Origin: a virus
Taxonomy: Duplodnaviria; Caudoviricetes
Direction: 5' to 3' (one strand)
Length of the DNA stretch: 40,826 bases
IMG/VR virus record: IMGVR_UViG_3300033494_000004
Location: 1-40,826 of that record
The position numbers and the translations under genes are program-made. Of this stretch, positions 6,305-40,226 are shown in pieces (the stretch's first letter is position 1; each line of letters opens with the position of its first letter). The notes beneath the pieces are model-generated. The model was not told where the DNA came from. It saw only the letters and a program-made list of their open reading frames with translations, and did no database searches.

Positions 6305-6335
6305 AAGATTGATAAAAATAAACAAAACTAAATAA

Positions 6336-6610
6336 ACATTTCTACTATACTTAAATGTATAAATTTTTATTAGAGGATATAGGCTTGAAAGTAGCCATTA
6401 TTTAAAGAGTTAGCCCATACTACCCTGTGCATTAAAGACTATTGGTAACAGATAGAGACTCAAGTTGCAAGGAATAAATAGAGGAGTTTAGGTTAATTAC
6501 CTAATAATATTATTGTCATACTTAGTAGGTAAAAATGAACCCTACATTTAATCAATACTATTAAAGCTATTTGGTGTAACAACACACTTTAATAAAAATT
6601 GTAGAAATGT
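6336..6610 (+). ncRNA. structured RNA mimicking 23S rRNA H43/H44 (L11-binding, GTPase-associated centre) with an inserted domain
   Basis: AGGATATAGGCTTGAAAGTAGCCATTATTTAAAGAGT (6374-6410) and GTGTAACAACACACT (6574-6588) align to 23S nt 1054-1090 and 1091-1105; closing stems 6362-6375/6587-6600 and 6336-6345/6601-6610. Confidence 0.8.
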
Positions 6611-6629
6611 TTATTTTAAAACGTATTAA

Positions 6630-8463: not shown

Positions 8464-8865
8464 ATACAAGAAGAATTAGTTAGTCACAAAGTAGCAAAAT
8501 TAGCTAAAGAAAAAGGATTTGACATTCCTACACTATATGAGTATGATCAAAATGGTGAACTATGGGTTGATGAAATGTATGCAATTAATTACAATGATTC
8601 GCCATATTCAAAAGAAGTTGTATCTGCACCAACACAAGCTTTGCTGCAACGTTGGTTAAGAGAAGTTCATAATATAGTCATTGTAATATTACCATATATA
8701 GGTTACCTTTCAAAACGTAAAAGTTGGGCAATGGAATACATGTTACTTACTAATCTTTATGATAATTATCTATTTGAAATTGATACTGCTGAATATCACT
8801 CATATGAAGAGGCATTAGAAGAAGGATTAGAAGGAGCATTAGATTTAATAAAAGATGAAAGTTAA
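8464..8865 (+). CDS. hypothetical protein, probably starting at ATA 8464 rather than ATG 8575
   Basis: Frame is open upstream as (I)QEELVSHKVAKLAKEKGFD; downstream APTQALLQRWLREVHNI and YEEALEEGL match a recalled family whose N-terminus is of this type. Confidence 0.65.
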   Translation: MQEELVSHKVAKLAKEKGFDIPTLYEYDQNGELWVDEMYAINYNDSPYSKEVVSAPTQALLQRWLREVHNIVIVILPYIGYLSKRKSWAMEYMLLTNLYDNYLFEIDTAEYHSYEEALEEGLEGALDLIKDES

Positions 8866-9070
8866 ATCAATTTTAAAAGTATTTCCAAAAGATACTATGA
8901 ACATGCATACATGTCATTTTTTATTATATGATAAAGATCCTGTAGTTAAATTATATGCTCCTTTTGGACCTGCATTGTGTAACAGTAGAAATACTAATTT
9001 TAAGCTAGAGGATTATGGTATTAAAAATATTACTATGAAATTTACTAAAAAAATGTATTATGATAATTAA
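8855..9070 (+). CDS. small protein, tandem paralog 1 (C-x-S-x-N-T ... TKKMYY family)
   Basis: Shares motifs with 9060 and 9293 ORFs. Confidence 0.7.
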   Translation: MKVKSILKVFPKDTMNMHTCHFLLYDKDPVVKLYAPFGPALCNSRNTNFKLEDYGIKNITMKFTKKMYYDN

Positions 9071-9287
9071 GTCATTAAATATTCCTATTAAAAGACCAGA
9101 TAGTAAAGTAATTTGGACTAATAAATCTAACGGATACAACTATTCAACAATACGGTATTGGGACTCATGTGATAATTTTATTAGTATTAAGTTACCCATT
9201 AAATGTACTTCATTAAACACTAATTATATTATTGAAAATAAAGCTTATTTTAACAATTTAATATTAACTAAAAAAATGTACTATTAA
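9060..9287 (+). CDS. small protein, tandem paralog 2
   Basis: IKLPIKCTSLNTNY...LILTKKMYY. Confidence 0.7.
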   Translation: MIIKSLNIPIKRPDSKVIWTNKSNGYNYSTIRYWDSCDNFISIKLPIKCTSLNTNYIIENKAYFNNLILTKKMYY

Positions 9288-9292
9288 TTATT

Positions 9293-9529
9293 ATGAAAGT
9301 TAAATCATTAATAAAAATTATAAGACAACCATTTAGAAGAATAAGATGGACAACTAATAATTTTGATAAAGATAAAAGAGTTAAATTAGTTTATTTACCA
9401 GATACAGATAATCCAATAAAAGAATTTATAATAGATATACCAATTAAATGTAATAGTACTAATACTTATGTACAATATAATTATAATGAACTATTATTAA
9501 CTAAAAGATTATACTATGATAACAACTAA
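9293..9529 (+). CDS. small protein, tandem paralog 3
   Basis: IDIPIKCNSTNTY...LLLTKRLYY. Confidence 0.7.
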   Translation: MKVKSLIKIIRQPFRRIRWTTNNFDKDKRVKLVYLPDTDNPIKEFIIDIPIKCNSTNTYVQYNYNELLLTKRLYYDNN

Positions 9530-9821
9530 GTTGTTTAATAAAATAAGAATGAAAGGTCCTATCTTTAGAGAATTAATATCGAATCACCTTAGAATACTTA
9601 CTAGAATTAATTTTAAAGTATATGCTGACCAAATATTGGATAAATTATATACACCAGGTTTACCAGATACTCATCAAGCTACTGGTTATATATTATTAAA
9701 AGAATTACTTCAAAAAAAAGAGCAAATTATAACTATGAATAAATTACGTTTTTTACATATTATAACAAGAAAATATGTTTTTAAAAATTGGTGTATATTA
9801 AAACATTTTAGAAAATTTTAA
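9516..9821 (+). CDS. hypothetical protein; N-terminus related to micro-ORF array members
   Basis: MITTKLFNKIRMK vs MITTKLHNKIKYK at 15341. Confidence 0.6.
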   Translation: MITTKLFNKIRMKGPIFRELISNHLRILTRINFKVYADQILDKLYTPGLPDTHQATGYILLKELLQKKEQIITMNKLRFLHIITRKYVFKNWCILKHFRKF

Positions 9822-13011: not shown

Positions 13012-13492
13012 AAATACATTTTTACCCACAGAACAAGTAAAAATATTTACTAATGCTAAATCAAATGTTTCATTTGACCATGCCATAAAATCACTTATCG
13101 AAGAAGAGTTGATTTGTTATACCTCAAATAAACAGCTAATGTTAAAAAATAGGCAGTCTTTATATCCATATATGGATACTTACTTTTATGGTACTAAACA
13201 AATCAATATTGAGATTAAAATTTCAGAAATTGATGGTGCATTATTAGTAAATGTAAATAATGAACTTGAAAGATGTAAAACAGAAGATGATGCATATAAA
13301 GCATTAGAGCTTTTAGTAAAGAAAGCATTGAGACCAATAATTGAAACTAAACTAAAAATTGAAAAGTTAAATAAATCTAATTTTGATTATAAATTAGATT
13401 TTGATAACTTAATTATCCAACTAGAAAATGAAATTAACACCTCATCAACTACAAGTTGCGTCGCTACTCCTATCCACGATGTGGAGTTCTGA
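12974..13492 (+). CDS. hypothetical protein, possible N-terminal winged helix
   Basis: ORF; FDHAIKSLIEEELI pattern. Confidence 0.65.
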   Translation: MNLKEKIVDVLSKNTFLPTEQVKIFTNAKSNVSFDHAIKSLIEEELICYTSNKQLMLKNRQSLYPYMDTYFYGTKQINIEIKISEIDGALLVNVNNELERCKTEDDAYKALELLVKKALRPIIETKLKIEKLNKSNFDYKLDFDNLIIQLENEINTSSTTSCVATPIHDVEF

Positions 13493-14666
13493 TGATAATT
13501 TATTTTTATTAGAAGGTGAACCCGGCGTAGGTAAAACAACCGTATCACATACAATAATTAAAGCATCATTACAATTAAATAAAAGATGTTTAATAGCTGC
13601 TCCAACTCATAAAGCATTAAGTGTATTAGAATCTAAACTTTTAAATTTAAAAAATAAAGTCGGATTCTCTACGGTACAATCTTTCTTAGATTATAAGAAA
13701 ACTTATGATTTTAATAAAGGAGTTGCTATTTTTAAATCTCCTCATTTTGATAGAATTAAAACAGAATTAGCTAATAAATTTGATTTAATATTTATTGACG
13801 AATGCTCTATGTTAACTGCTGATATGTATGAAAAGCTAAAGGCATTAACTAGTATTAATAAAGATTTAAAAATAATTCTATGTGGAGATAGAAAACAACT
13901 TAATCCAGTAGATGAATCTATAAATCCCTTATTTCATCAATTAATACCCTTTAAACTAACTGAAATAGTTAGACAAGCTAAAGACAATCCTATACTAGAA
14001 TTAGTAAGAAATCACAATGAAATATTAAGTTTTAAACAGAATAATTTAACTAATGAAAAAAAAGGGTATGCTTTCTTTGTAAAAGAAGATGTATTAGATT
14101 CTTTTATCACTCTTTTGGCTCAAAGAGATGATATGGTTTATTTAGCATATTCTAATAAAGCTTGTGATAATGTAAATTCAGCAGTAAGAACTAAAAAGTA
14201 TGGTGATGCAGCACCTACTTTAGTTGTTGGAGAATCTATTATAATGAAACATTCTAAAGATTTTAAAACTGGTGAGATTAGAGTTATTACTAAAATAACA
14301 CCTAATCTAACTCTTAATTTAAATGATGTAGGAATGTCTATTTCTTACATGAGAGTATTCTTTGATAATGGTCTTAATTGTGCTATTCCCACAAATAAAC
14401 AAGAATTAAATAATTTAATAAGTGAAGTGGCTAAATTAGCAAAAGCTAAAAAAATCCATTGGGTTAGATATTTTGAAATAGCAGAATACTTTCAAGAATA
14501 CACTTATAAGTATGCTATAACGACACACTCATCTCAAGGTAGCACTTACTTTAGTACCATTATAGATCTAAAAGATATGATGATAAATAGTGATAAAGAA
14601 GAACGAACTAGATTATTATATACAGCAGTATCACGTGCATCTGATTTATGCGTTATATTATACTAA
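13428..14666 (+). CDS. Dda/RecD-like SF1B DNA helicase
   Basis: GEPGVGKT, APTHKA, IDECSM, GDRKQL, LTEIVRQ, TTHSSQGST, LLYTAVSRA. Confidence 0.9.
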   Translation: MKLTPHQLQVASLLLSTMWSSDDNLFLLEGEPGVGKTTVSHTIIKASLQLNKRCLIAAPTHKALSVLESKLLNLKNKVGFSTVQSFLDYKKTYDFNKGVAIFKSPHFDRIKTELANKFDLIFIDECSMLTADMYEKLKALTSINKDLKIILCGDRKQLNPVDESINPLFHQLIPFKLTEIVRQAKDNPILELVRNHNEILSFKQNNLTNEKKGYAFFVKEDVLDSFITLLAQRDDMVYLAYSNKACDNVNSAVRTKKYGDAAPTLVVGESIIMKHSKDFKTGEIRVITKITPNLTLNLNDVGMSISYMRVFFDNGLNCAIPTNKQELNNLISEVAKLAKAKKIHWVRYFEIAEYFQEYTYKYAITTHSSQGSTYFSTIIDLKDMMINSDKEERTRLLYTAVSRASDLCVILY

Positions 14667-14673
14667 TTAAATT

Positions 14674-14874
14674 ATGATAAGTAATAAATTAAATAATAAG
14701 ACAAAATTTAAACATAGGTTTATCCTATATGATGGAGTTGGTAGTACAAATAAAATTAACTTTAATCCTGACCCAACTATTTATGAAGTTCATATATGGA
14801 GTGACATAAAGTATGGAGAGATTGATTCTACAATACAATTTATTAAAAATGACTTCTACAAAAAATATAGATAA
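14674..14874 (+). CDS. array micro-ORF 1 (66 aa, GSTNK subfamily)
   Basis: MISNKLNNKTKFK...VGSTNKINF. Confidence 0.7.
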   Translation: MISNKLNNKTKFKHRFILYDGVGSTNKINFNPDPTIYEVHIWSDIKYGEIDSTIQFIKNDFYKKYR

Positions 14875-15007
14875 AAAAGTATTTTTATTTGAACTTCTTA
14901 ATGCTCGTGTAATCGGTTCGACTAATAAAGTTAGATTTAGTAGAAGTATTAATGTATATGCATATTTAATATTTTTTACTAATCGTATGATAAAATTTTC
15001 AAAATGA
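14849..15007 (+). CDS. array micro-ORF 2 (52 aa, GSTNK subfamily)
   Basis: MTSTKNIDKKVFLFEL...IGSTNKVRFS. Confidence 0.7.
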   Translation: MTSTKNIDKKVFLFELLNARVIGSTNKVRFSRSINVYAYLIFFTNRMIKFSK

Positions 15008-15165
15008 AAGTCACAAAACATATAGATAAAAAATTATTTATACAAGAACTTATGACATATACTGACCTTGGGTCAACTAATAAAGTAAGGTTTAGTGTAT
15101 TTATTTATAAATATAAAATTAAAATAACTTACAGGTATTTTGATAAACCTGTAGAATTTTACTAG
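15004..15165 (+). CDS. array micro-ORF 3 (53 aa, GSTNK subfamily)
   Basis: MKVTKHIDKKLFIQEL...LGSTNKVRFS; ATGA overlap. Confidence 0.7.
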   Translation: MKVTKHIDKKLFIQELMTYTDLGSTNKVRFSVFIYKYKIKITYRYFDKPVEFY

Positions 15166-15201
15166 TAGTAGACATCATTATAAATTTAAAGTTATACATA
15201 A

Positions 15202-15354
15202 ATGAAAGCTAAAAAACAAGATCAAAAAAAATATTTTATTAAAAAAAGAAGTATTCGTATTTACAAAACATTTAAATGTACCAAACATTGTATTAGAAAT
15301 AATGAATATATTTTTGAGTTTGATATAAAGTTTAAAAACAATGATCACAACTAA
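15202..15354 (+). CDS. array micro-ORF 4 (50 aa)
   Basis: MKAKKQDQKKYFIK... Confidence 0.6.
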   Translation: MKAKKQDQKKYFIKKRSIRIYKTFKCTKHCIRNNEYIFEFDIKFKNNDHN

Positions 15355-15448
15355 ATTACATAATAAAATAAAATATAAAGCAGAACTATTTAGATGTATT
15401 ATAATATCTATTGATACTATTTGTTATACTGATAAAATTAATTTATAG
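15341..15448 (+). CDS. array micro-ORF 5 (35 aa, possibly frameshift-truncated)
   Basis: MITTKLHNKIKYK...YTDKINL*; 14-nt overlap with the previous ORF. Confidence 0.5.
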   Translation: MITTKLHNKIKYKAELFRCIIISIDTICYTDKINL

Positions 15449-15488
15449 AGTAATTATATGGAAATTCCTAACTGGGGTGACACAATTT

Positions 15489-15641
15489 ATGAAATCAAAA
15501 AAATTAAGTGAAAAAATGGAATTTAAAAATGAATTGTCATTTAGAGATCTTTACTATATGATTGGTAGTACAAATAAAGTTCAGTTTTCTAGACTTGTAA
15601 ATGTATATTGTTTTAGAATGCGTTTTACAACTGAAAATTAA
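15489..15641 (+). CDS. array micro-ORF 6 (50 aa, GSTNK subfamily)
   Basis: MKSKKLSEKMEFK...IGSTNKVQFSRLVNVY. Confidence 0.7.
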   Translation: MKSKKLSEKMEFKNELSFRDLYYMIGSTNKVQFSRLVNVYCFRMRFTTEN

Positions 15642-15642
15642 T

Positions 15643-15801
15643 ATGAGATGTACTAAATTATATGAAAAATTATCTATTAAATATCATTTAATACATAGTT
15701 TAAAACCATCATTTACGTTTGCTATACTTACATTTACTTCCCATTGTGATCACGATGTAATTATTTCAGATGGTAGAATTAGATTAAAAAGAAGTTTATG
15801 A
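15643..15801 (+). CDS. array micro-ORF 7 (52 aa)
   Basis: MRCTKLYEKLSIK... Confidence 0.6.
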   Translation: MRCTKLYEKLSIKYHLIHSLKPSFTFAILTFTSHCDHDVIISDGRIRLKRSL

Positions 15802-15932
15802 GAATATATAAACAAGTAGGTAAACAAATGTTTATTAAAGAATATCCATTTCTTCGTAAGTATTATTATTATTTTGTTTTTAAAAATGGTATATTACAAA
15901 TTTATAGTTTAAAAGATAATGATAACATTTAA
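15798..15932 (+). CDS. array micro-ORF 8 (44 aa)
   Basis: MRIYKQVGKQMFIK...; ATGA overlap. Confidence 0.6.
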   Translation: MRIYKQVGKQMFIKEYPFLRKYYYYFVFKNGILQIYSLKDNDNI

Positions 15933-16050
15933 ACACAATTATAAAGAAAATTTTAAAGTAGATTGGCTTGATAGGCGATCAATTAGAATGTGTGGAATAC
16001 TAACTGCTTTAAATGTAAGACAGTTTTATTATACCAACTTATACGCATGA
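15919..16050 (+). CDS. array micro-ORF 9 (43 aa)
   Basis: MITFKHNYKENFK...; 14-nt overlap. Confidence 0.6.
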   Translation: MITFKHNYKENFKVDWLDRRSIRMCGILTALNVRQFYYTNLYA

Positions 16051-16169
16051 AAACTTATAAACTTAAATTCAAATTATGGATTGCATATTATGCCATTAAT
16101 GATTATTACATGCTTTCAAATGTAAAAGATTCTGTAATTAGTATACAAATTAAATATGAGAACTTATAA
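16047..16169 (+). CDS. array micro-ORF 10 (40 aa)
   Basis: MKTYKLKFKLW...; ATGA overlap. Confidence 0.6.
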   Translation: MKTYKLKFKLWIAYYAINDYYMLSNVKDSVISIQIKYENL

Positions 16170-16299
16170 ACTTTATGATAAAATAGATTATAAAAAACAC
16201 TTATGTCATGATTATTATTTAAAATTAAATAATATAGAAAGTAGTTTAGTTATTCAAGAGTATTACAAATTTCTAATTAATAAAAATGAGAGCATTTAA
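16156..16299 (+). CDS. array micro-ORF 11 (47 aa)
   Basis: MRTYKLYDKIDYK...; 14-nt overlap. Confidence 0.6.
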   Translation: MRTYKLYDKIDYKKHLCHDYYLKLNNIESSLVIQEYYKFLINKNESI

Positions 16300-16423
16300 A
16301 ATAAAATACAAGTTACGTACTAAGAAAATATTATGTAAATTCAAAAAAATAAGTATAATGTATGATGAGTCAGATATTACTGGTGTAAAAATTAGACAAA
16401 AAGCATATTTAATGGAAATATGA
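16286..16423 (+). CDS. array micro-ORF 12 (45 aa)
   Basis: MRAFKIKYKLRTK...; 14-nt overlap. Confidence 0.6.
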   Translation: MRAFKIKYKLRTKKILCKFKKISIMYDESDITGVKIRQKAYLMEI

Positions 16424-16566
16424 AAGTAACAAAATTAACTTCTAAGTTAAAATTTGATAAATTATTATTTATCAAACATACTTGGATCTCAAGTTCTATT
16501 GTTAAAATTCACATTAGGATTATTGATGATACAGAGATAATTAAATTTAAAATTTATAAAAGATGA
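16420..16566 (+). CDS. array micro-ORF 13 (48 aa)
   Basis: MKVTKLTSKLKFDK...; ATGA overlap. Confidence 0.6.
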   Translation: MKVTKLTSKLKFDKLLFIKHTWISSSIVKIHIRIIDDTEIIKFKIYKR

Positions 16567-16703
16567 GAAAATTTAAATCATATTACAAATTAGGTTGGAA
16601 GATTAGAGTAATACTCAAGATGAAAGTTATTTTGACAGGTATTGAACGACCATTTAAATTTGATCAATTACTTCATGACTTAAAATTAATCAATGAAAAA
16701 TGA
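16563..16703 (+). CDS. array micro-ORF 14 (46 aa)
   Basis: MRKFKSYYKLGWK...; ATGA overlap. Confidence 0.6.
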   Translation: MRKFKSYYKLGWKIRVILKMKVILTGIERPFKFDQLLHDLKLINEK

Positions 16704-16846
16704 GAACTTATAAATTAACTCATAAACACGTATTTTATGTAACATGGATAAGTGGTAACAATCAGTATATCATTCGTAAACAGTGGATGAAAGGAAGAAG
16801 TAAGTCAATGCAGGACGATTATATATTTAATATTATTTTTCAATAA
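16700..16846 (+). CDS. array micro-ORF 15 (48 aa)
   Basis: MRTYKLTHKHVFYVTW...; paralog of micro-ORF 16. Confidence 0.65.
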   Translation: MRTYKLTHKHVFYVTWISGNNQYIIRKQWMKGRSKSMQDDYIFNIIFQ

Positions 16847-16849
16847 CAA

Positions 16850-16990
16850 ATGAGAATATTTAAATTAACTTATAAACAAATATTTTATAAAGATTGGTTA
16901 AAGCGTTATAAGGTATTTAAAAATAGCAAAAAATGGATGTCACGTAAGGTTATATCAATTCAAGAGGATTTTATACATGAAAACATTTAA
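16850..16990 (+). CDS. array micro-ORF 16 (46 aa)
   Basis: MRIFKLTYKQIFYKDW...KWM..K..SIQEDFI. Confidence 0.65.
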   Translation: MRIFKLTYKQIFYKDWLKRYKVFKNSKKWMSRKVISIQEDFIHENI

Positions 16991-17117
16991 ATTAAATTAT
17001 AAAATATTTATGAAATACATTTATTGTGGTGATAAGTTCGATTATTATATGATATCTAGTTATGAGTTTATTGGTGAATCTCAACATCGATATGTATTAT
17101 TAATAAAAAAGAAATAA
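16977..17117 (+). CDS. array micro-ORF 17 (46 aa)
   Basis: MKTFKLNYKIFMK...; 14-nt overlap. Confidence 0.6.
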   Translation: MKTFKLNYKIFMKYIYCGDKFDYYMISSYEFIGESQHRYVLLIKKK

Positions 17118-17263
17118 TGCGAACTTATAAAAACTATTATAAAATAAAATGTATGTCAGAACATACTATATATACTACTTTGAATCGTAAAATTATTTAT
17201 TGTATTCATGAATTATCTTATAGATTATCTAAATTACCTAAAATAAATTATCTCAAATTATGA
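17117..17263 (+). CDS. array micro-ORF 18 (48 aa)
   Basis: MRTYKNYYKIKC...; TAATG overlap; its stop overlaps ATG 17260. Confidence 0.6.
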   Translation: MRTYKNYYKIKCMSEHTIYTTLNRKIIYCIHELSYRLSKLPKINYLKL

Positions 17264-17907: not shown

Positions 17908-20122
17908 TAGTATACGATTTAGAGGTATACCAAAATTTATTTTTATTTGTAGGTTATCATACAGAAAAAGATAAAACTATTATAGTAGAACTATCATCTA
18001 GAAAATGGGAATCTGATTTATTAATAGAATTAGCTAAATATTGTTATAATCAACAATTGCCTTTAGTTGGCTTTAATAATTTAAATTATGATGGTCCAAT
18101 GCTCGAATATATTTTATCACTTTTAATAAATTCCAATTTAAGTAATGATAAAATATTAAGTAAAGTAAAATCAAAATCAGATGAACTAGTAACTTCTAAA
18201 TCTAAATATCCTCCTAAATATAATCTAGGTATACCTCAAATTGATTTAATGAGGATAAATAGATTTGATGTACAAATGATCAGTTTAAAATACTTAATGT
18301 TTGCATTACGAGTATTAAATGTTCAAGAGTTACCATTTCATCATACTGCTGTATTAACTGATGAAGAAATTGATGTTGTTATAAATTATTGTAAAAATGA
18401 TATTACTACAACTATAAAACTATATGAAAGTTCAAAAGATAAAATTGATATGAGAAATCAATTGAATTTAGAATATAGTAAAAATTTTATAACAAAAGAC
18501 GATGCTCAGTTAGGTGAAGAAATATTTCTTTTAGAATTAGAGAAAGAAATGGATTGTGAAAGAAATAACTTTAAAAAAGTGGATAAAGGAATTTTGATTT
18601 CTTTTAAAGATTTAATATTTGATTATATAAAATTTGAATCTAAAGAATTTAATTTACTTTTAAATTGGTTAAAAGATGTTCAAACTATAGAAATAAAAGG
18701 TTGTTTAAATAGTTTAGAATATGAAAAATTAAAATCATTAGAAGGATATTATAAAGAAAAAAAAGTAAAAGGAAAACAAGATTACTTTAACATATTATAT
18801 AAAGGAAATGAAATAGTATATGGAGTGGGTGGCGTACATTTTTCTACTGAAGGATCGTTTATTTCTGATGATGAAAATATGATATTAGATGTAGATGTAG
18901 AAGCAATGTACCCTAGTTTATCTATCTCAAATCAATTTTATCCGTCTCAATTTGGATTAAGTTTTTGTAATGTGTATTCAAATTTAAAAGAAAAGCGTAA
19001 GTCTTATCCTAAGACTAATCCTTTAAATACAGCTATAAAATTAAGTATGAACTCTGTTTTATAAAAAGCAGCTTTGCGAAGCGATTCGCATTGAAAAATC
19101 GGGAGAATTAGGTGGAACTCTTAAATAAGACAATACCTAACCGAGCTTAGATGGGAATCTAAGAAGGTGTAGAGACTAATGATATACCACAAGACCTGTG
19201 ATGAAATCAACACGAGAACCCGACATCTTATATTATAAGATGATGATATAGTCCGAGCTATATGGTGACATATAGAACTAAATTTTAAATGAATTTAGGA
19301 TAACAACCCTGATACGGAAAAACTCAATCTGAATACAGTAAACTATTTGACCCTTCATACACATTAAAAACAACTTTGAATGGTCAACTAGTATTAACAA
19401 TGTTAATTGAGCAACTTAGTACTATAGATCATTTAAAAGTATTACAAATTAATACTGATGGCTCTACTATAATGTTTAATAGAAATGATTATAACAAAGT
19501 AGTTGAAATATGTAATAAATGGGAAAATCAAGTAAATTTAAAGTTAGAATACAATGAGTATAGTAAGATGTTTATATCTAATGTAAATAATTATATCTCG
19601 CAATATACTAACGGAAAAGTTAAATTAAAAGGTGCGTTTGAAATAGATCGAGGATTAGTTAAAGATCATTCTATGTTAATTGTACCAAAGGCAGCTAAAG
19701 CATACTTTATAGATAATATAAAACCAGAAGATTTTATATTATTTCATGATGATATATTTGATTTCTTTTTAGCAGTAAATGTTAAATCAAAAGAACATCA
19801 GTTATGGGAAGGTGAGTTAATAACAGAACAAATACCATCTAAAATAAAAAATAGATTTAAAACAATAGTTAGATTTGAAAAAGAAAGAAGATTACAAAAA
19901 GTAACTAGATATTTAGTAACTAAACAAGGTAAAACATTCATGAAAATAATGCCACCATTAGCTGGTAAAGATTCAATCAGAGAATCAAATATTCATGTTG
20001 ATTACTTATGTACTGAATGTAATAATTTAACAAATGTAAACTTACATTCTTTATTTAAATTAATAAACTATGATTTTTACATCAAAGAAACTTATAAACT
20101 TATAAATTCAATTAATAAATAA
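17904..20122 (+). CDS. polB: family B DNA polymerase, join(17904..19057,19312..20122), 654 aa after splicing
   Basis: ExoI YDLE, ExoII GFNNLNYD, ExoIII YCKND; motif A DVEAMYPS; motif B K-LSMNSV|YGK restored by splicing; motif C INTDG. Confidence 0.9.
19058..19311 (+). ncRNA. group I intron (IA2-like), no internal ORF, 254 nt
   Basis: Exon ends in U; P1 CUGU/GCAG with U.G wobble; P7 GACUA 19174-19178/UAGUC 19249-19253; P3 UCGGG/CCCGA; P8 CAUCUUAUA/UAUAAGAUG; P9 CUAUAUG-GUGA-CAUAUAG; terminal G at 19311. Confidence 0.92.
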
Positions 20123-20124
20123 CT

Positions 20125-20673
20125 ATGTTAGAAATATCATTACACGAAAGATTTTTCTTAGATCTTGGTTTTGACGAATTTCATGAAATAAACGATTTAC
20201 CTGATACAACTCTAAAAGACAAAGTATTATTTAAAAATATAACTAAACCTTTAATTTCTAAGTATAATTTAATTAACAAATTAATCATAGTATTAGGACT
20301 ATACAATAGTAAAGAAGAATCTTGCGATTTAGAATATTATACAATTGACATCAATGATTATATTGCTAATTTAAATAATGAATTTATGAATAATGAATCA
20401 TTAAATAAATTAGTAGTTAAAGTTTTTGGTGATAATGGATTTAACGGTGTCTTTGTAACCCATAACCATAATATTAATGTAGATCCTTTATGGAATTATA
20501 TTAAATCAAACTTAACTCCTATAAATTTAATAGAAAAATCATTAGTTATACCAGGATTATATATATTTGATGAAGTCGAATTTGATTTTTTCAGGGTACA
20601 TCAATTAAAATTAAACCCCAACTTATCTGAAAATTATAAAATAATAAATAAAAACATATCAGTAGAACTATGA
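20125..20673 (+). CDS. hypothetical protein, paralog of the next ORF
   Basis: FFLDLGFDEF...PGLYIFDE...DFFRV. Confidence 0.75.
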   Translation: MLEISLHERFFLDLGFDEFHEINDLPDTTLKDKVLFKNITKPLISKYNLINKLIIVLGLYNSKEESCDLEYYTIDINDYIANLNNEFMNNESLNKLVVKVFGDNGFNGVFVTHNHNINVDPLWNYIKSNLTPINLIEKSLVIPGLYIFDEVEFDFFRVHQLKLNPNLSENYKIINKNISVEL

Positions 20674-21341
20674 AATTAGTAATAAACACATTTGAAGAAT
20701 TTTTCCTAGATTTAGGAGTAGAGGAATTTTACGATTTATCAAAGTATCAAAATCAAATTCTACCAATTGAAATAGAAAATAAAGTTCTAGAAAGATTTAA
20801 AGAACTTGGATTAATGGATTCATTAATAATAGCTTTTAGAAGTTCTTTACTCATAGAAGGTGATTCAGAATATAGAACTAGCAATATTGATGATATTGAA
20901 ATAAATGGTAAGAAAACAGTAATGACGATACCATTAGTACCATATATTGAATATCTAACTAAATTAAAAAATGGTGAATCTGGTGATGAATATTTAGATA
21001 TTCTATTATTACCAAACGATGAACTAAGTAATGAAGATAGGCATAAACTATTAACATTAGAGTTTATGGATAAAATAAGCACTAGTTTTTCTTTATATGA
21101 AAAAGCTTTGGCTGATAAAAACTTTAGTTATATAGATAGTTTAAAACATTTATGTCAATCTAATTTTAGAACTATTCCTACTGTACAAACAGATTTAATT
21201 TGTCAAGAAGGATTGTTTGTATTTGATGAAGAAAGAGAGCATAAAGATTTTGTAAGAGTAAAGTCAATGGAATTAGTAGATGATGGAAGCATTAAACCTA
21301 CTAAAGATATACTTTTAGAATTAGATAATATAATCTGGTAA
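20670..21341 (+). CDS. hypothetical protein, paralog of the previous ORF
   Basis: FFLDLGVEEF...EGLFVFDE...DFVRV. Confidence 0.75.
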   Translation: MKLVINTFEEFFLDLGVEEFYDLSKYQNQILPIEIENKVLERFKELGLMDSLIIAFRSSLLIEGDSEYRTSNIDDIEINGKKTVMTIPLVPYIEYLTKLKNGESGDEYLDILLLPNDELSNEDRHKLLTLEFMDKISTSFSLYEKALADKNFSYIDSLKHLCQSNFRTIPTVQTDLICQEGLFVFDEEREHKDFVRVKSMELVDDGSIKPTKDILLELDNIIW

Positions 21342-38423: not shown

Positions 38424-39131
38424 ATGAATAAAACACAAATATCAGCTAAAATAGTAGCTGATAGTATAAATCCACAAGGTGATAGACTAATAAGTGTATT
38501 ATGTACATTTCCAAGAATTATATTAGCAGAAGTAAATACACATCGGATGTTAAGCAAAAATACTTCTTCAAGCAGAGCTATACCTTTTAAGAAAATGGTA
38601 GAAGCTATACAAAATGACCCATTTATTCCTATTGCTTGGCAAAAAGACCATAAAGGTATGCAAGGGAGTGAGTATATTACAGATGATTTTAGTATAAATG
38701 AAGTAACAGCAACATGGTTACTAGCGAGAACTAAAACTGTTCATGAAGCTGAAAACTTAAATAGAATAGGGGCTACTAAACAACTATGTAATAGATTACT
38801 AGAACCTTTTATGTGGACTACCATGTTAATTACAGGTAGTAAAGAATCTTGGGATAATTTATTTGAACTTAGAAATCCAAGTTATGAGGTAATTTGTGCT
38901 ACAAATGGTAAAAATTATTATAAAAGTAGAAAAGATTTACTGGTAGACTTTCCTGATGCTACATATAAAACAGATTCAGAATGGCTACAATTAAATAAAG
39001 GTCAAGCTGAAATTCATTTTATGGAACTTTCCGAGAAAATATATGATGCAGTACAAGAATCAAAACCAAAAAGTCTTCAAGAAGGAGATTGGCACATACC
39101 TATGATTGAAGTAATAGAAGATCAGTTATGA
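38424..39131 (+). CDS. thyX: flavin-dependent thymidylate synthase, N-terminal part
   Basis: FPRIILAEVNTHRMLSKNTSSSRAIP, KQLCNRLLEPF, AEI, WHIP. Confidence 0.85.
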   Translation: MNKTQISAKIVADSINPQGDRLISVLCTFPRIILAEVNTHRMLSKNTSSSRAIPFKKMVEAIQNDPFIPIAWQKDHKGMQGSEYITDDFSINEVTATWLLARTKTVHEAENLNRIGATKQLCNRLLEPFMWTTMLITGSKESWDNLFELRNPSYEVICATNGKNYYKSRKDLLVDFPDATYKTDSEWLQLNKGQAEIHFMELSEKIYDAVQESKPKSLQEGDWHIPMIEVIEDQL

Positions 39132-39835
39132 AAGTAATAGGAATATATAAAATAGTATCTCCTTCAAATAAAGTTTATATAGGACAAACTGTAGATTTTG
39201 TAAAGAGAAGAAGTCATTATAAGAACTTAAAAAGGAATCATCAAATAAGGTTATATAATTCTATCAAGAAACATGGATGGGAAAATCATACTTTAGAATT
39301 AATAGAAGAATGTGATGTTCCATTATTAAATGACAGGGAAAGATATTGGCAGGACTATTATAATGTGACAGATTCAAAGAAAGGTTTAAATTGTAAATTA
39401 ACAAAAACTACAGATAAAACAGGATTTCATACTCAAGAAATGAAAAAGAATCAAAGAGAAAGTTCTAAAAGTAAAAAATCAGTTTATCAATACTCTTTAG
39501 AGGGTGTTTTTATTAAAGAATATATTTCTATTGGTGAAGCTGCTGAAGAAAATAGACTACATACAGCTGCTTTACATAGCTCTATCACTAAAAATAAAAC
39601 TAATACAATAAAAGGTTTCCAATGGTTTTATGATTATAAAGGATTAAATATTCCTAAAGTTAGTTTAGGTACTATTACTAAAAAGGTTAGATTATACAAT
39701 GATAACGAAGAGTATATATTTAACAGTAGAACAGAATGTGCTAATTTCATAAAAAGAAGTATAGGAAGAGTATCAGACTTGTTAAAAATAGGTATTTGGA
39801 AAAATTATAAAATAGAAAATTATGTTGAAAATTAA
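39128..39835 (+). mobile_element. GIY-YIG homing endonuclease with NUMOD1-like C-terminus, inserted in thyX
   Basis: GIYKI...VYIGQT...R...ERYW...GLN; VYQYSLEGVFIKEYISIGEAA. Confidence 0.88.
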
Positions 39836-40226
39836 AAGAAGTGAGTTAAAACAATTAGCTCAAAATAAATTAGGAAATGATTCTATTGAATCACAAAATC
39901 AAATTCTTGTAATGATAAGTACAAGTCTGGCAGCAAGAACTTCTTACACAGTTGTAGGAGAAGAAAAAGAAGTTAATTATGAAAATCTTATTGCTTTACA
40001 TGATAGATTGCTAAATCAAGAGCCTCCACATAGTAGTCCATTTGAGCATTGTGCAAGAGCTATGAATGATAGTGAGTATAATACATTTGTTAAAGGTCAA
40101 GTAGAATGGTACACTGAAAATTACATATCTATACCATTAAAAAAATCAAAAGGTTGGTGTTACAATTTAAAAGGTTTTATACCTTATAGATATATTATTG
40201 ATAATAAAATTAAATTATGGAAATAG
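39822..40226 (+). CDS. thyX: flavin-dependent thymidylate synthase, C-terminal part
   Basis: ISTSLAARTSY, LHDRLL, PPHSSPFEHCA, NLKGFIPYR. Confidence 0.8.
   Translation: MLKIKRSELKQLAQNKLGNDSIESQNQILVMISTSLAARTSYTVVGEEKEVNYENLIALHDRLLNQEPPHSSPFEHCARAMNDSEYNTFVKGQVEWYTENYISIPLKKSKGWCYNLKGFIPYRYIIDNKIKLWK

Follow-up and report, generated by a model that had tools for sequence, protein, structure and literature searches.

A coupled array of short open reading frames with a conserved head and fast-changing bodies in a putative Bacteroidota phage

What occupies the 2.6 kb between the helicase and the polymerase side of the virus record IMGVR_UViG_3300033494_000004, a region that looks nearly empty at first sight? 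The whole record, a linear stretch of 40,826 nucleotides (nt) which is about 34% complete, is referred to here as the window. An initial annotation, made from the letters alone, had placed 18 micro-protein genes in this region, with related starts (heads) and strongly diverging remainders (bodies). The array proved to be real. Judged from its sequence it is one family of tiny predicted phage genes with a conserved head and fast-changing bodies; the family is new to the literature searched, and its pattern of turnover is well documented. The reading we favour, with a probability of about 45%, is that the array may serve as a repertoire of peptides that interact with the host, possibly against its defences, and that turn over by birth and death. 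This is favoured because the peptides appear to be selected, the bodies change no more slowly than silent sites and the set differs between close relatives through replacement, which together is the pattern of genes in conflict.

All 18 open reading frames (ORFs) were recovered at the expected places, each with an ATG start on the + strand and a length of 35-66 amino acids (aa). The near-gapless tiling was also confirmed, 15 of the 17 internal junctions lying between -26 and +3 nt and the remaining two being gaps of 36 and 40 nt. Region 14667-17263 holds the 18 ORFs with 96.7% coverage, a single chain of 18, 14 coupled joints and 13 head matches. When the region was shuffled 3000 times with 2-, 3- or 4-mers preserved, a control named in the initial annotation, none of the shuffles equalled any of these values; the maxima were 9 ORFs, 39% coverage, a chain of 5, three coupled joints and one head match. 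The minus strand of the region has three ORFs. Reassignment of a stop codon was rejected, as the ORFs stay separate with TGA or TAG read as sense (longest frames 68 and 66 codons, respectively). Parts of the array recur without a single differing letter in contigs of run X2, which may be the source sample, and of run X3, which belongs to another study; an assembly artefact is therefore unlikely.

The head was defined over 40 ORFs, ie the 18 of the window and 22 of a close relative, L030, which covers the whole locus. It is 13 residues or about 40 nt long and runs Met, Lys/Arg, a small residue, any residue, Lys5, mostly Leu, two of any kind, Lys9, mostly Leu/Ile, any residue, mostly Phe/Tyr/Ile and often a further Lys. 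Both Lys5 and Lys9 are present in 39/40 ORFs, compared to 4/63 other genes. The Lys9 codon is AAG in 6/39, the background rate, which fits constraint at the protein level. A second motif, G-S/Y-T-N/D-K, was found at residues 22-32 in 13/40 ORFs; a fourteenth match to the search expression, at residue 51, was excluded as chance. Its Gly uses all four codons and its Ser both codon boxes, and so it is the residue that is kept and not the DNA. This codon-varied motif is the clearest sign of selection on the peptides. A tree of the 13 motif members lacks resolution.

The 18 ORFs of the window, with their partners in L030 where there is one, are as follows.

14674..14874, + strand: ORF1, 66 aa, head and G-S-T-N-K motif
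14849..15007, + strand: ORF2, 52 aa, motif subfamily; paralogous to ORF3, tail out of frame
15004..15165, + strand: ORF3, 53 aa, motif subfamily, stop 36 nt before ORF4
15202..15354, + strand: ORF4, 50 aa, without an L030 partner
15341..15448, + strand: ORF5, 35 aa, of the motif subfamily, closed by an in-frame TAG 40 nt short of ORF6; its partner, L030:1190, has 52 aa
15489..15641, + strand: ORF6, 50 aa, motif subfamily; positional partner L030:1492
15643..15801, + strand: ORF7, 52 aa, second subfamily (S-x-C); partners L030:1642 and L030:3039
15798..15932, + strand: ORF8, 44 aa; partner L030:1802, frameshifted tail
15919..16050, + strand: ORF9, 43 aa
16047..16169, + strand: ORF10, 40 aa; partner L030:2460, 64% identical
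16156..16299, + strand: ORF11, 47 aa
16286..16423, + strand: ORF12, 45 aa; first 21 nt are those of L030:1802
16420..16566, + strand: ORF13, 48 aa
16563..16703, + strand: ORF14, 46 aa, the weakest head of the window
16700..16846, + strand: ORF15, 48 aa, paralog of ORF16
16850..16990, + strand: ORF16, 46 aa, paralog of ORF15
16977..17117, + strand: ORF17, 46 aa
17117..17263, + strand: ORF18, 48 aa, the most conserved member, 85% identical to L030:3576 with a ratio of non-synonymous to synonymous substitution rates (dN/dS) of 0.34

At the same site in L030, between the helicase and a gene of 215 aa, lie its 22 ORFs of 29-66 aa. The adjacent genes are close to those of the window (helicase end 98%, 215-aa gene 92%, polymerase start 89% identical), and five further L030 genes are 62-97% identical. 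Within the array, one-to-one partners could be assigned to six of the 18 window ORFs (ORF5, 6, 7, 8, 10 and 18, 35-85% identical), and these occur in the same order in both phages. ORF1-3 have only subfamily relatives in L030, and nine window ORFs have no L030 body match above a similarity score (z) of 5. Most members have thus been replaced between close relatives, as expected of a constant head with a variable body. Distinct body subfamilies, the motif group and the S-x-C group, are present in both phages, and both retain 18-22 units. A contig of a third strain (X8, record 25) matches the helicase end and diverges from L030 at the start of the array. In the cultured Flavobacterium phages Fpv1 and Fpv3 the same helicase and polymerase are separated by three ordinary genes; no head match was found in either, and the array is absent from both.

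The rates of change differ along the units. Over five partner pairs the ratio of non-synonymous to synonymous proportions of differences (pN/pS) was 0.37 (0.18-0.70) in the heads, a value blurred by the overlap of heads with the tail of the preceding ORF, and 1.17 (0.84-1.75) in the bodies. Flanking genes gave a dN/dS of 0.04-0.27, with one tandem paralog at 0.53. Second-position differences were seen in 36/158 body codons compared to 32/1313 in the flanks, with similar synonymous differences (7/69 and 147/1092, respectively), ie amino-acid change in the bodies is about tenfold faster than in the flanking genes. First-position change in the bodies also exceeds change at four-fold sites of the flanks (p 2e-5). 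Other estimators applied to the same five pairs gave 0.64, 0.80 and, with YN00, 0.24. Given this disagreement, the pairs demonstrate fast change but not positive selection. Even so, the body frames remain open; after neutral change of 10-33%, 42-10% of them would be expected to be intact. The same concentration of change is seen between the closest records, two of which (L029 and L001) cover part of the locus. Ten of the 14 differences between L001 and L030 over 8.8 kb fall in the array, nine of them in one ORF and eight of those nine non-synonymous, these differences lying near the contig end; between L029 and L030 it is four of five. A contig of run X12, with 12 differing letters over the L001 stretch, may carry the same allele.

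Some of the steps by which units are renewed can be read from the pairs. ORF8 matches L030:1802 in frame over 87 nt, after which the two are shifted by one base, so that similar DNA encodes unrelated tails; the pair ORF2 and ORF3 likewise runs in frame and then out of frame. A frameshift placed 15 nt upstream was rescued by the next head in 22/36 cases, and one at 60 nt in 2/36. None of 23 ORF pairs aligned mainly out of frame, and frameshifts between ORFs therefore account for tails but not for whole bodies. L030:1802 carries the first 21 nt of ORF12 on a body of the ORF8 type, and the proteins P0012 and P0043 differ solely at head residues 3-4. Both cases suggest exchange between heads, with chance a possible cause for L030:1802. 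The proposal that neighbours are closest relatives held in the window, where the best match was adjacent for 6/18 ORFs (p 0.02), but not in L030 (2/22, p 0.57). Pairs 2/3 and 15/16 of the window are reciprocal best matches, 10/11 is one-way, and similarity declines with distance (p 0.001). Growth by local duplication is accordingly supported in the window and not in L030, and head swaps and tail frameshifts contribute too.

These features lead to a tentative scheme for how a repertoire of host-interacting peptides might be produced. The ORFs would likely be translated in relay from one mRNA, the ribosomes re-initiating at each head. Stops in both off-frames occur within 30 nt in 37/40 heads, compared to 37/63 other genes (p 2e-4), and it is because of these that overlaps of -4, -11, -14, -23, -26 and -32 recur; -4 (ATGA) accounts for 13/40 and -14 for 12/40 of the junctions. 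Start regions are weakly folded (-1.7 kcal/mol compared to -4.7 mid-body). A promoter scan gave matches at the shuffle level only, and no terminator was found. Units could be gained, lost and shuffled by recombination between the approximately 40-nt heads, possibly aided by the Sak4-like annealing protein encoded elsewhere in the window. The head would give all members the same signal for docking or targeting, and specificity would come from the body, while tails would be renewed by frameshift, the shifted frames being caught by the off-frame stops of the next head. The peptides would likely act on host proteins, for example those of defence systems. A more ambitious version, which we consider rather unlikely, makes the head a self-contained device for gene birth, combining a start, an off-frame stop, a recombination handle and a docking peptide in about 40 nt. 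If that were true, any sequence between two heads would become an expressed, tagged peptide, and a near-random peptide library could be screened against the host without a dedicated diversifying enzyme.

Several results weigh against a repertoire of host-directed peptides. The bodies had been described as basic and aromatic-rich; this is mostly accounted for by base composition, from which Leu (low) and Asp (high) alone differ by over 4 standard deviations, and the bodies thus resemble random AT-rich peptides. No hydrophobic periodicity was detected in them at lags 1-7, and the AlphaFold confidence (predicted local distance difference test, pLDDT) for the motif subfamily was 58. The interval of the body pN/pS includes 1, the YN00 value for the five pairs is well below it, and body second positions compared to flank four-fold sites gave p 0.06. 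The Lys5 codon is AAA in 39/39 (p 0.007 compared to other array Lys, p 0.09 compared to early Lys of other genes), a hint that the head has a role at the nucleotide level too. ORF3 and ORF5 look recently shortened; in the case of ORF3 another frame remains open up to the ATGA of ORF4. The full arrays compared are two, those of the window and L030. None of the 18 ORFs matched PHROG at an expectation value (E) of 0.01, Pfam gave a single sub-threshold match among them, and PADLOC gave two weak matches among 23 proteins, none above the cut-off.

Near-random bodies would also be expected if the head, with the motif in one subfamily, were the working part, for example as a basic binder of nucleic acid, ribosome or membrane, and the array a stabilised gene amplification that raises its dosage; the bodies would then drift, needing just an open frame of about 30-65 codons. 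Constraint does fall mainly on the head, the bodies have a pN/pS close to 1, tails tolerate frameshifts, and T4 is reported to amplify tifA by recombination at short homologies (10.1101/2022.04.14.488369, from the part of that report available). This explanation is unlikely to our minds, given that distinct body subfamilies persist in both phages, that ORF18 is clearly conserved and that first-position change in the bodies goes beyond plain drift. A still more neutral account, in which the head is a self-propagating repeat, most members are inert and a function has been acquired by a few, for example ORF18, draws on the same near-random bodies, on the shortened ORF3 and ORF5 and on the 29-aa member of L030; random sequences can yield selectable phenotypes in phage-host conflict, according to the part of PMC12557735 available. 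We regard it as highly improbable, as 97% of the region is open frame, though neutral drift would close most ORFs, and 18-22 units are kept in both phages.

The peptides might instead be carried in the virion, like the internal proteins of T-even phages, the head serving as a capsid-loading signal and the peptides being packaged and injected with the DNA. A common N-terminal leader, unrelated bodies and a polymorphic locus are shared with Ip1-3, as far as the sources available describe these, and a search with a two-head DNA pattern found ORFs of T4-like marine phages with similar first five residues. The T4 capsid targeting signal is acidic and is cut by the prohead protease after Glu. In the array, Glu is found at residue 6 in 0/40 and at residue 10 in 1/40 ORFs, and a hydrophobic-x-Glu sequence within residues 6-12 in 4/40. 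Furthermore, none of the two-head matches listed (21 loci) was an array, the phage is not T4-like and the genes for a virion head lie outside this record, all of which makes packaging improbable. Finally, the peptides could be irrelevant and the coupled short ORFs serve in cis, holding ribosomes on the mRNA or tuning expression of the 215-aa gene and polymerase, with the head as a strong A-rich initiation signal. An A is present at nt 13, 14 and 25 of the head in 40/40, which together with the off-frame stops and weakly folded starts would suit such a role, and Bacteroidota are described in the available part of PMC6847099 as initiating without a Shine-Dalgarno sequence by means of adenines and low structure. 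The motif is kept through synonymous change, however, and Lys9 uses AAG at the background rate; Fpv1 and Fpv3 manage the same link with ordinary genes, and a relay accounts for open frames but not for the existence of 2.6-3.2 kb. A purely cis-acting array is accordingly as hard to credit as a neutral one. The repertoire of host-interacting peptides remains the reading we prefer.

Homologs of the family were sought widely. Profile searches found nothing beyond this lineage: profile A3 gave 12 proteins among 5.8 billion and profile A1 gave 13 among 1.84 billion. The helicase itself has one close cluster, the next relatives being 31-36% identical. For ORF6 there was no usable match in the ESM Atlas and none by tblastn against 50,697 phage records at E 1. 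Foldseek gave no match at E 0.001. The head-plus-motif DNA pattern had 0 matches in viral contigs; the two-head pattern gave no array among the matches listed from its 21 loci, a three-head pattern was not scanned and distant arrays are possible. Among the loci found with two heads, T4-like marine phages (L008, L010, L011, L014 and similar loci) have adjacent ORFs whose first five residues resemble the head; these also overlap by 14 nt and have acidic bodies. An origin as a tandem DNA repeat, CRISPR array or iteron was rejected: Tandem Repeats Finder reported two short weak rows only in the region, and the families of repeats, whose copies are 60-88% alike, fall on the ORF heads or on the motif. 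Rfam at the gathering score had no match in the array. PQQ-type propeller blades were discarded as well (PF13360 and PF13570, 0 genome matches at E 10); profile A5 matched the designed protein Scone-E weakly (E 4e-4 summed over three repeats, each with an individual E of 15-21). GIY-YIG fragments were excluded because PF01541 matches 39140-39364 only, with none in the array.

The array is bounded by two genes, and a possible displaced member lies further upstream.

13428..14666, + strand: Dda-like helicase, left boundary of the array (phrog_325, E 1.5e-75), C-terminal part 98% identical in L030
17260..17907, + strand: 215-aa lineage-restricted gene, right boundary, ATGA overlap with ORF18, one homolog cluster at 87%; the AlphaFold model is of low confidence (pLDDT 44.5)
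9516..9821, + strand: possible displaced longer member, 101 aa, Lys5/Lys9 head, most like ORF5 (z 10.5); weak profile match (E 0.027), under the cut-off of the head matrix

By a family scan of its proteins the window carries early genes and a replication module comprising the Dda-like helicase, a family B polymerase, SF2 and DnaB-like helicases, the Sak4-like annealing protein, a primase, an ATPase, ribonucleotide reductase, dUTPase and thymidylate synthase; its GC content is 19-30% per kb. No virion gene, those of the conserved Crassvirales block (capsid, portal, terminase, IHF, genes 74/75) included, was found among the 59 proteins scanned from this partial record. The best cultured matches for the primase and Dda are the Flavobacterium phages Fpv1, Fpv3 and FpV4, which are also among the best for the polymerase (all 30-34% identity), and the gene order is the same. 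These phages belong to Fipvunavirus, which is placed outside the five gut groups of crAss-like phages in the available part of PMC7886860. No Shine-Dalgarno motif was found at window gene starts. From the Flavobacterium matches, the gene order and the lack of this motif, we infer a Bacteroidota host. The window DNA is present in microbial-mat runs, none of the runs carrying it being listed with an RNA dataset, and the L030 array in activated-sludge runs X7 and X12. GTDB genome contigs had no match, and therefore gave no host link.

Other features of these genomes were recorded in passing. In Fpv1 and Fpv3 a 2.3-kb stretch that carries no annotation lies upstream of the helicase region (L026 record, 83872-86204; L027 record, 81497-83827); it holds two short ORFs, after which the gene strand has no ATG ORF for about 1.4 kb. 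A group I intron at 19048-19275 splits the DNA polymerase of the window (RF00028, 78 bits, E 3e-20; fold z -4.7), and escaped the whole-window Rfam scan at the gathering score. In L030 (5322-6047) and L001 (2396-3121) the polymerase frame ends at 319 codons (386 in the window) and resumes about 700 nt later, which suggests an insertion at another site. Thymidylate synthase is in two pieces flanking a GIY-YIG homing endonuclease gene (38424-40226), likely a mobile intron. A second tandem family, of three overlapping or abutting 71-78 aa paralogs (mutual z 7-13), occupies 8855-9529; it is unrelated to the main array, and the head-bearing ORF at 9516 comes next. Tandem paralogs of 182 and 223 aa (z 10) lie at 20125-21341, the first, which is the one with a dN/dS of 0.53, being only 62% identical in L030. 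Long non-coding gaps at 731-1256 and 6305-6629 in the early region may hold promoters or an origin.

Most accessory genes of phages are orphans without a traced origin. Here, two close relatives hold 40 tagged micro-proteins at one fixed site, most of them replaced while the neighbouring genes are 89-98% identical, and the locus displays steps of renewal directly, ie duplication, tail frameshift and allele exchange. Arrays of such short ORFs sit below the usual limits of gene calling and are easily overlooked. If the peptides act on the host, candidate anti-defence inhibitors for Bacteroidota could be drawn from this one compact locus, which would also be a naturally occurring case for testing how function arises in near-random peptides.

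The suggestion that the array is not a described system stands for the family, of which literature searches found no description (subscription journals and supplements being outside their coverage), but not for the layout, which is similar to that of the internal-protein loci of T-even phages and of the blocks of short genes in crAss-like phages. In the available parts of PMC12373910 and PMC9958956 the T-even ip loci have small non-core genes with a common leader and unrelated bodies at a polymorphic locus, and the Ip proteins, which have the leader alone in common, each block a different GmrSD (PMC12373910). The array likewise has its Lys5/Lys9 leader and bodies in several unrelated groups. 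Unlike those loci, its leader is basic and almost without Glu, it has 18-22 units in one coupled chain where T4 has three genes in two loci, no T4-type head machinery was seen in the partial record and there is no PHROG match. Because its leader lacks the Glu of the T4 signal and no homology was found, the array is not a member of the Ip group; by analogy it may work like the ip loci. Blocks of short orphan genes in crAss-like phages are suspected of anti-defence roles (Yutin et al. 2021, PMC7886860). They too are short orphans of related Bacteroidota phages that match poorly between close genomes; the Zeta-group short ORFs, however, are on both strands, while the array is one family on one strand, and the available part of that account makes no mention of a shared head, paralogy or coupling. 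The T4 dmd-tifA amplification also gives tandem copies at short homologies, which are identical and recent as far as that report (10.1101/2022.04.14.488369) is available, compared to the strongly diverged units of the array that are stable in number. Overlapping pairs of the ATGA type with termination-reinitiation (PMC6728339, available in part) resemble the -4 and -14 junctions described above; they represent a general mechanism and not a gene family, whereas the array repeats the overlap about 20 times with a head that stops the off-frames. Like anti-CRISPR and anti-defence clusters, the array brings together small orphan genes that evolve fast, at a site that varies.

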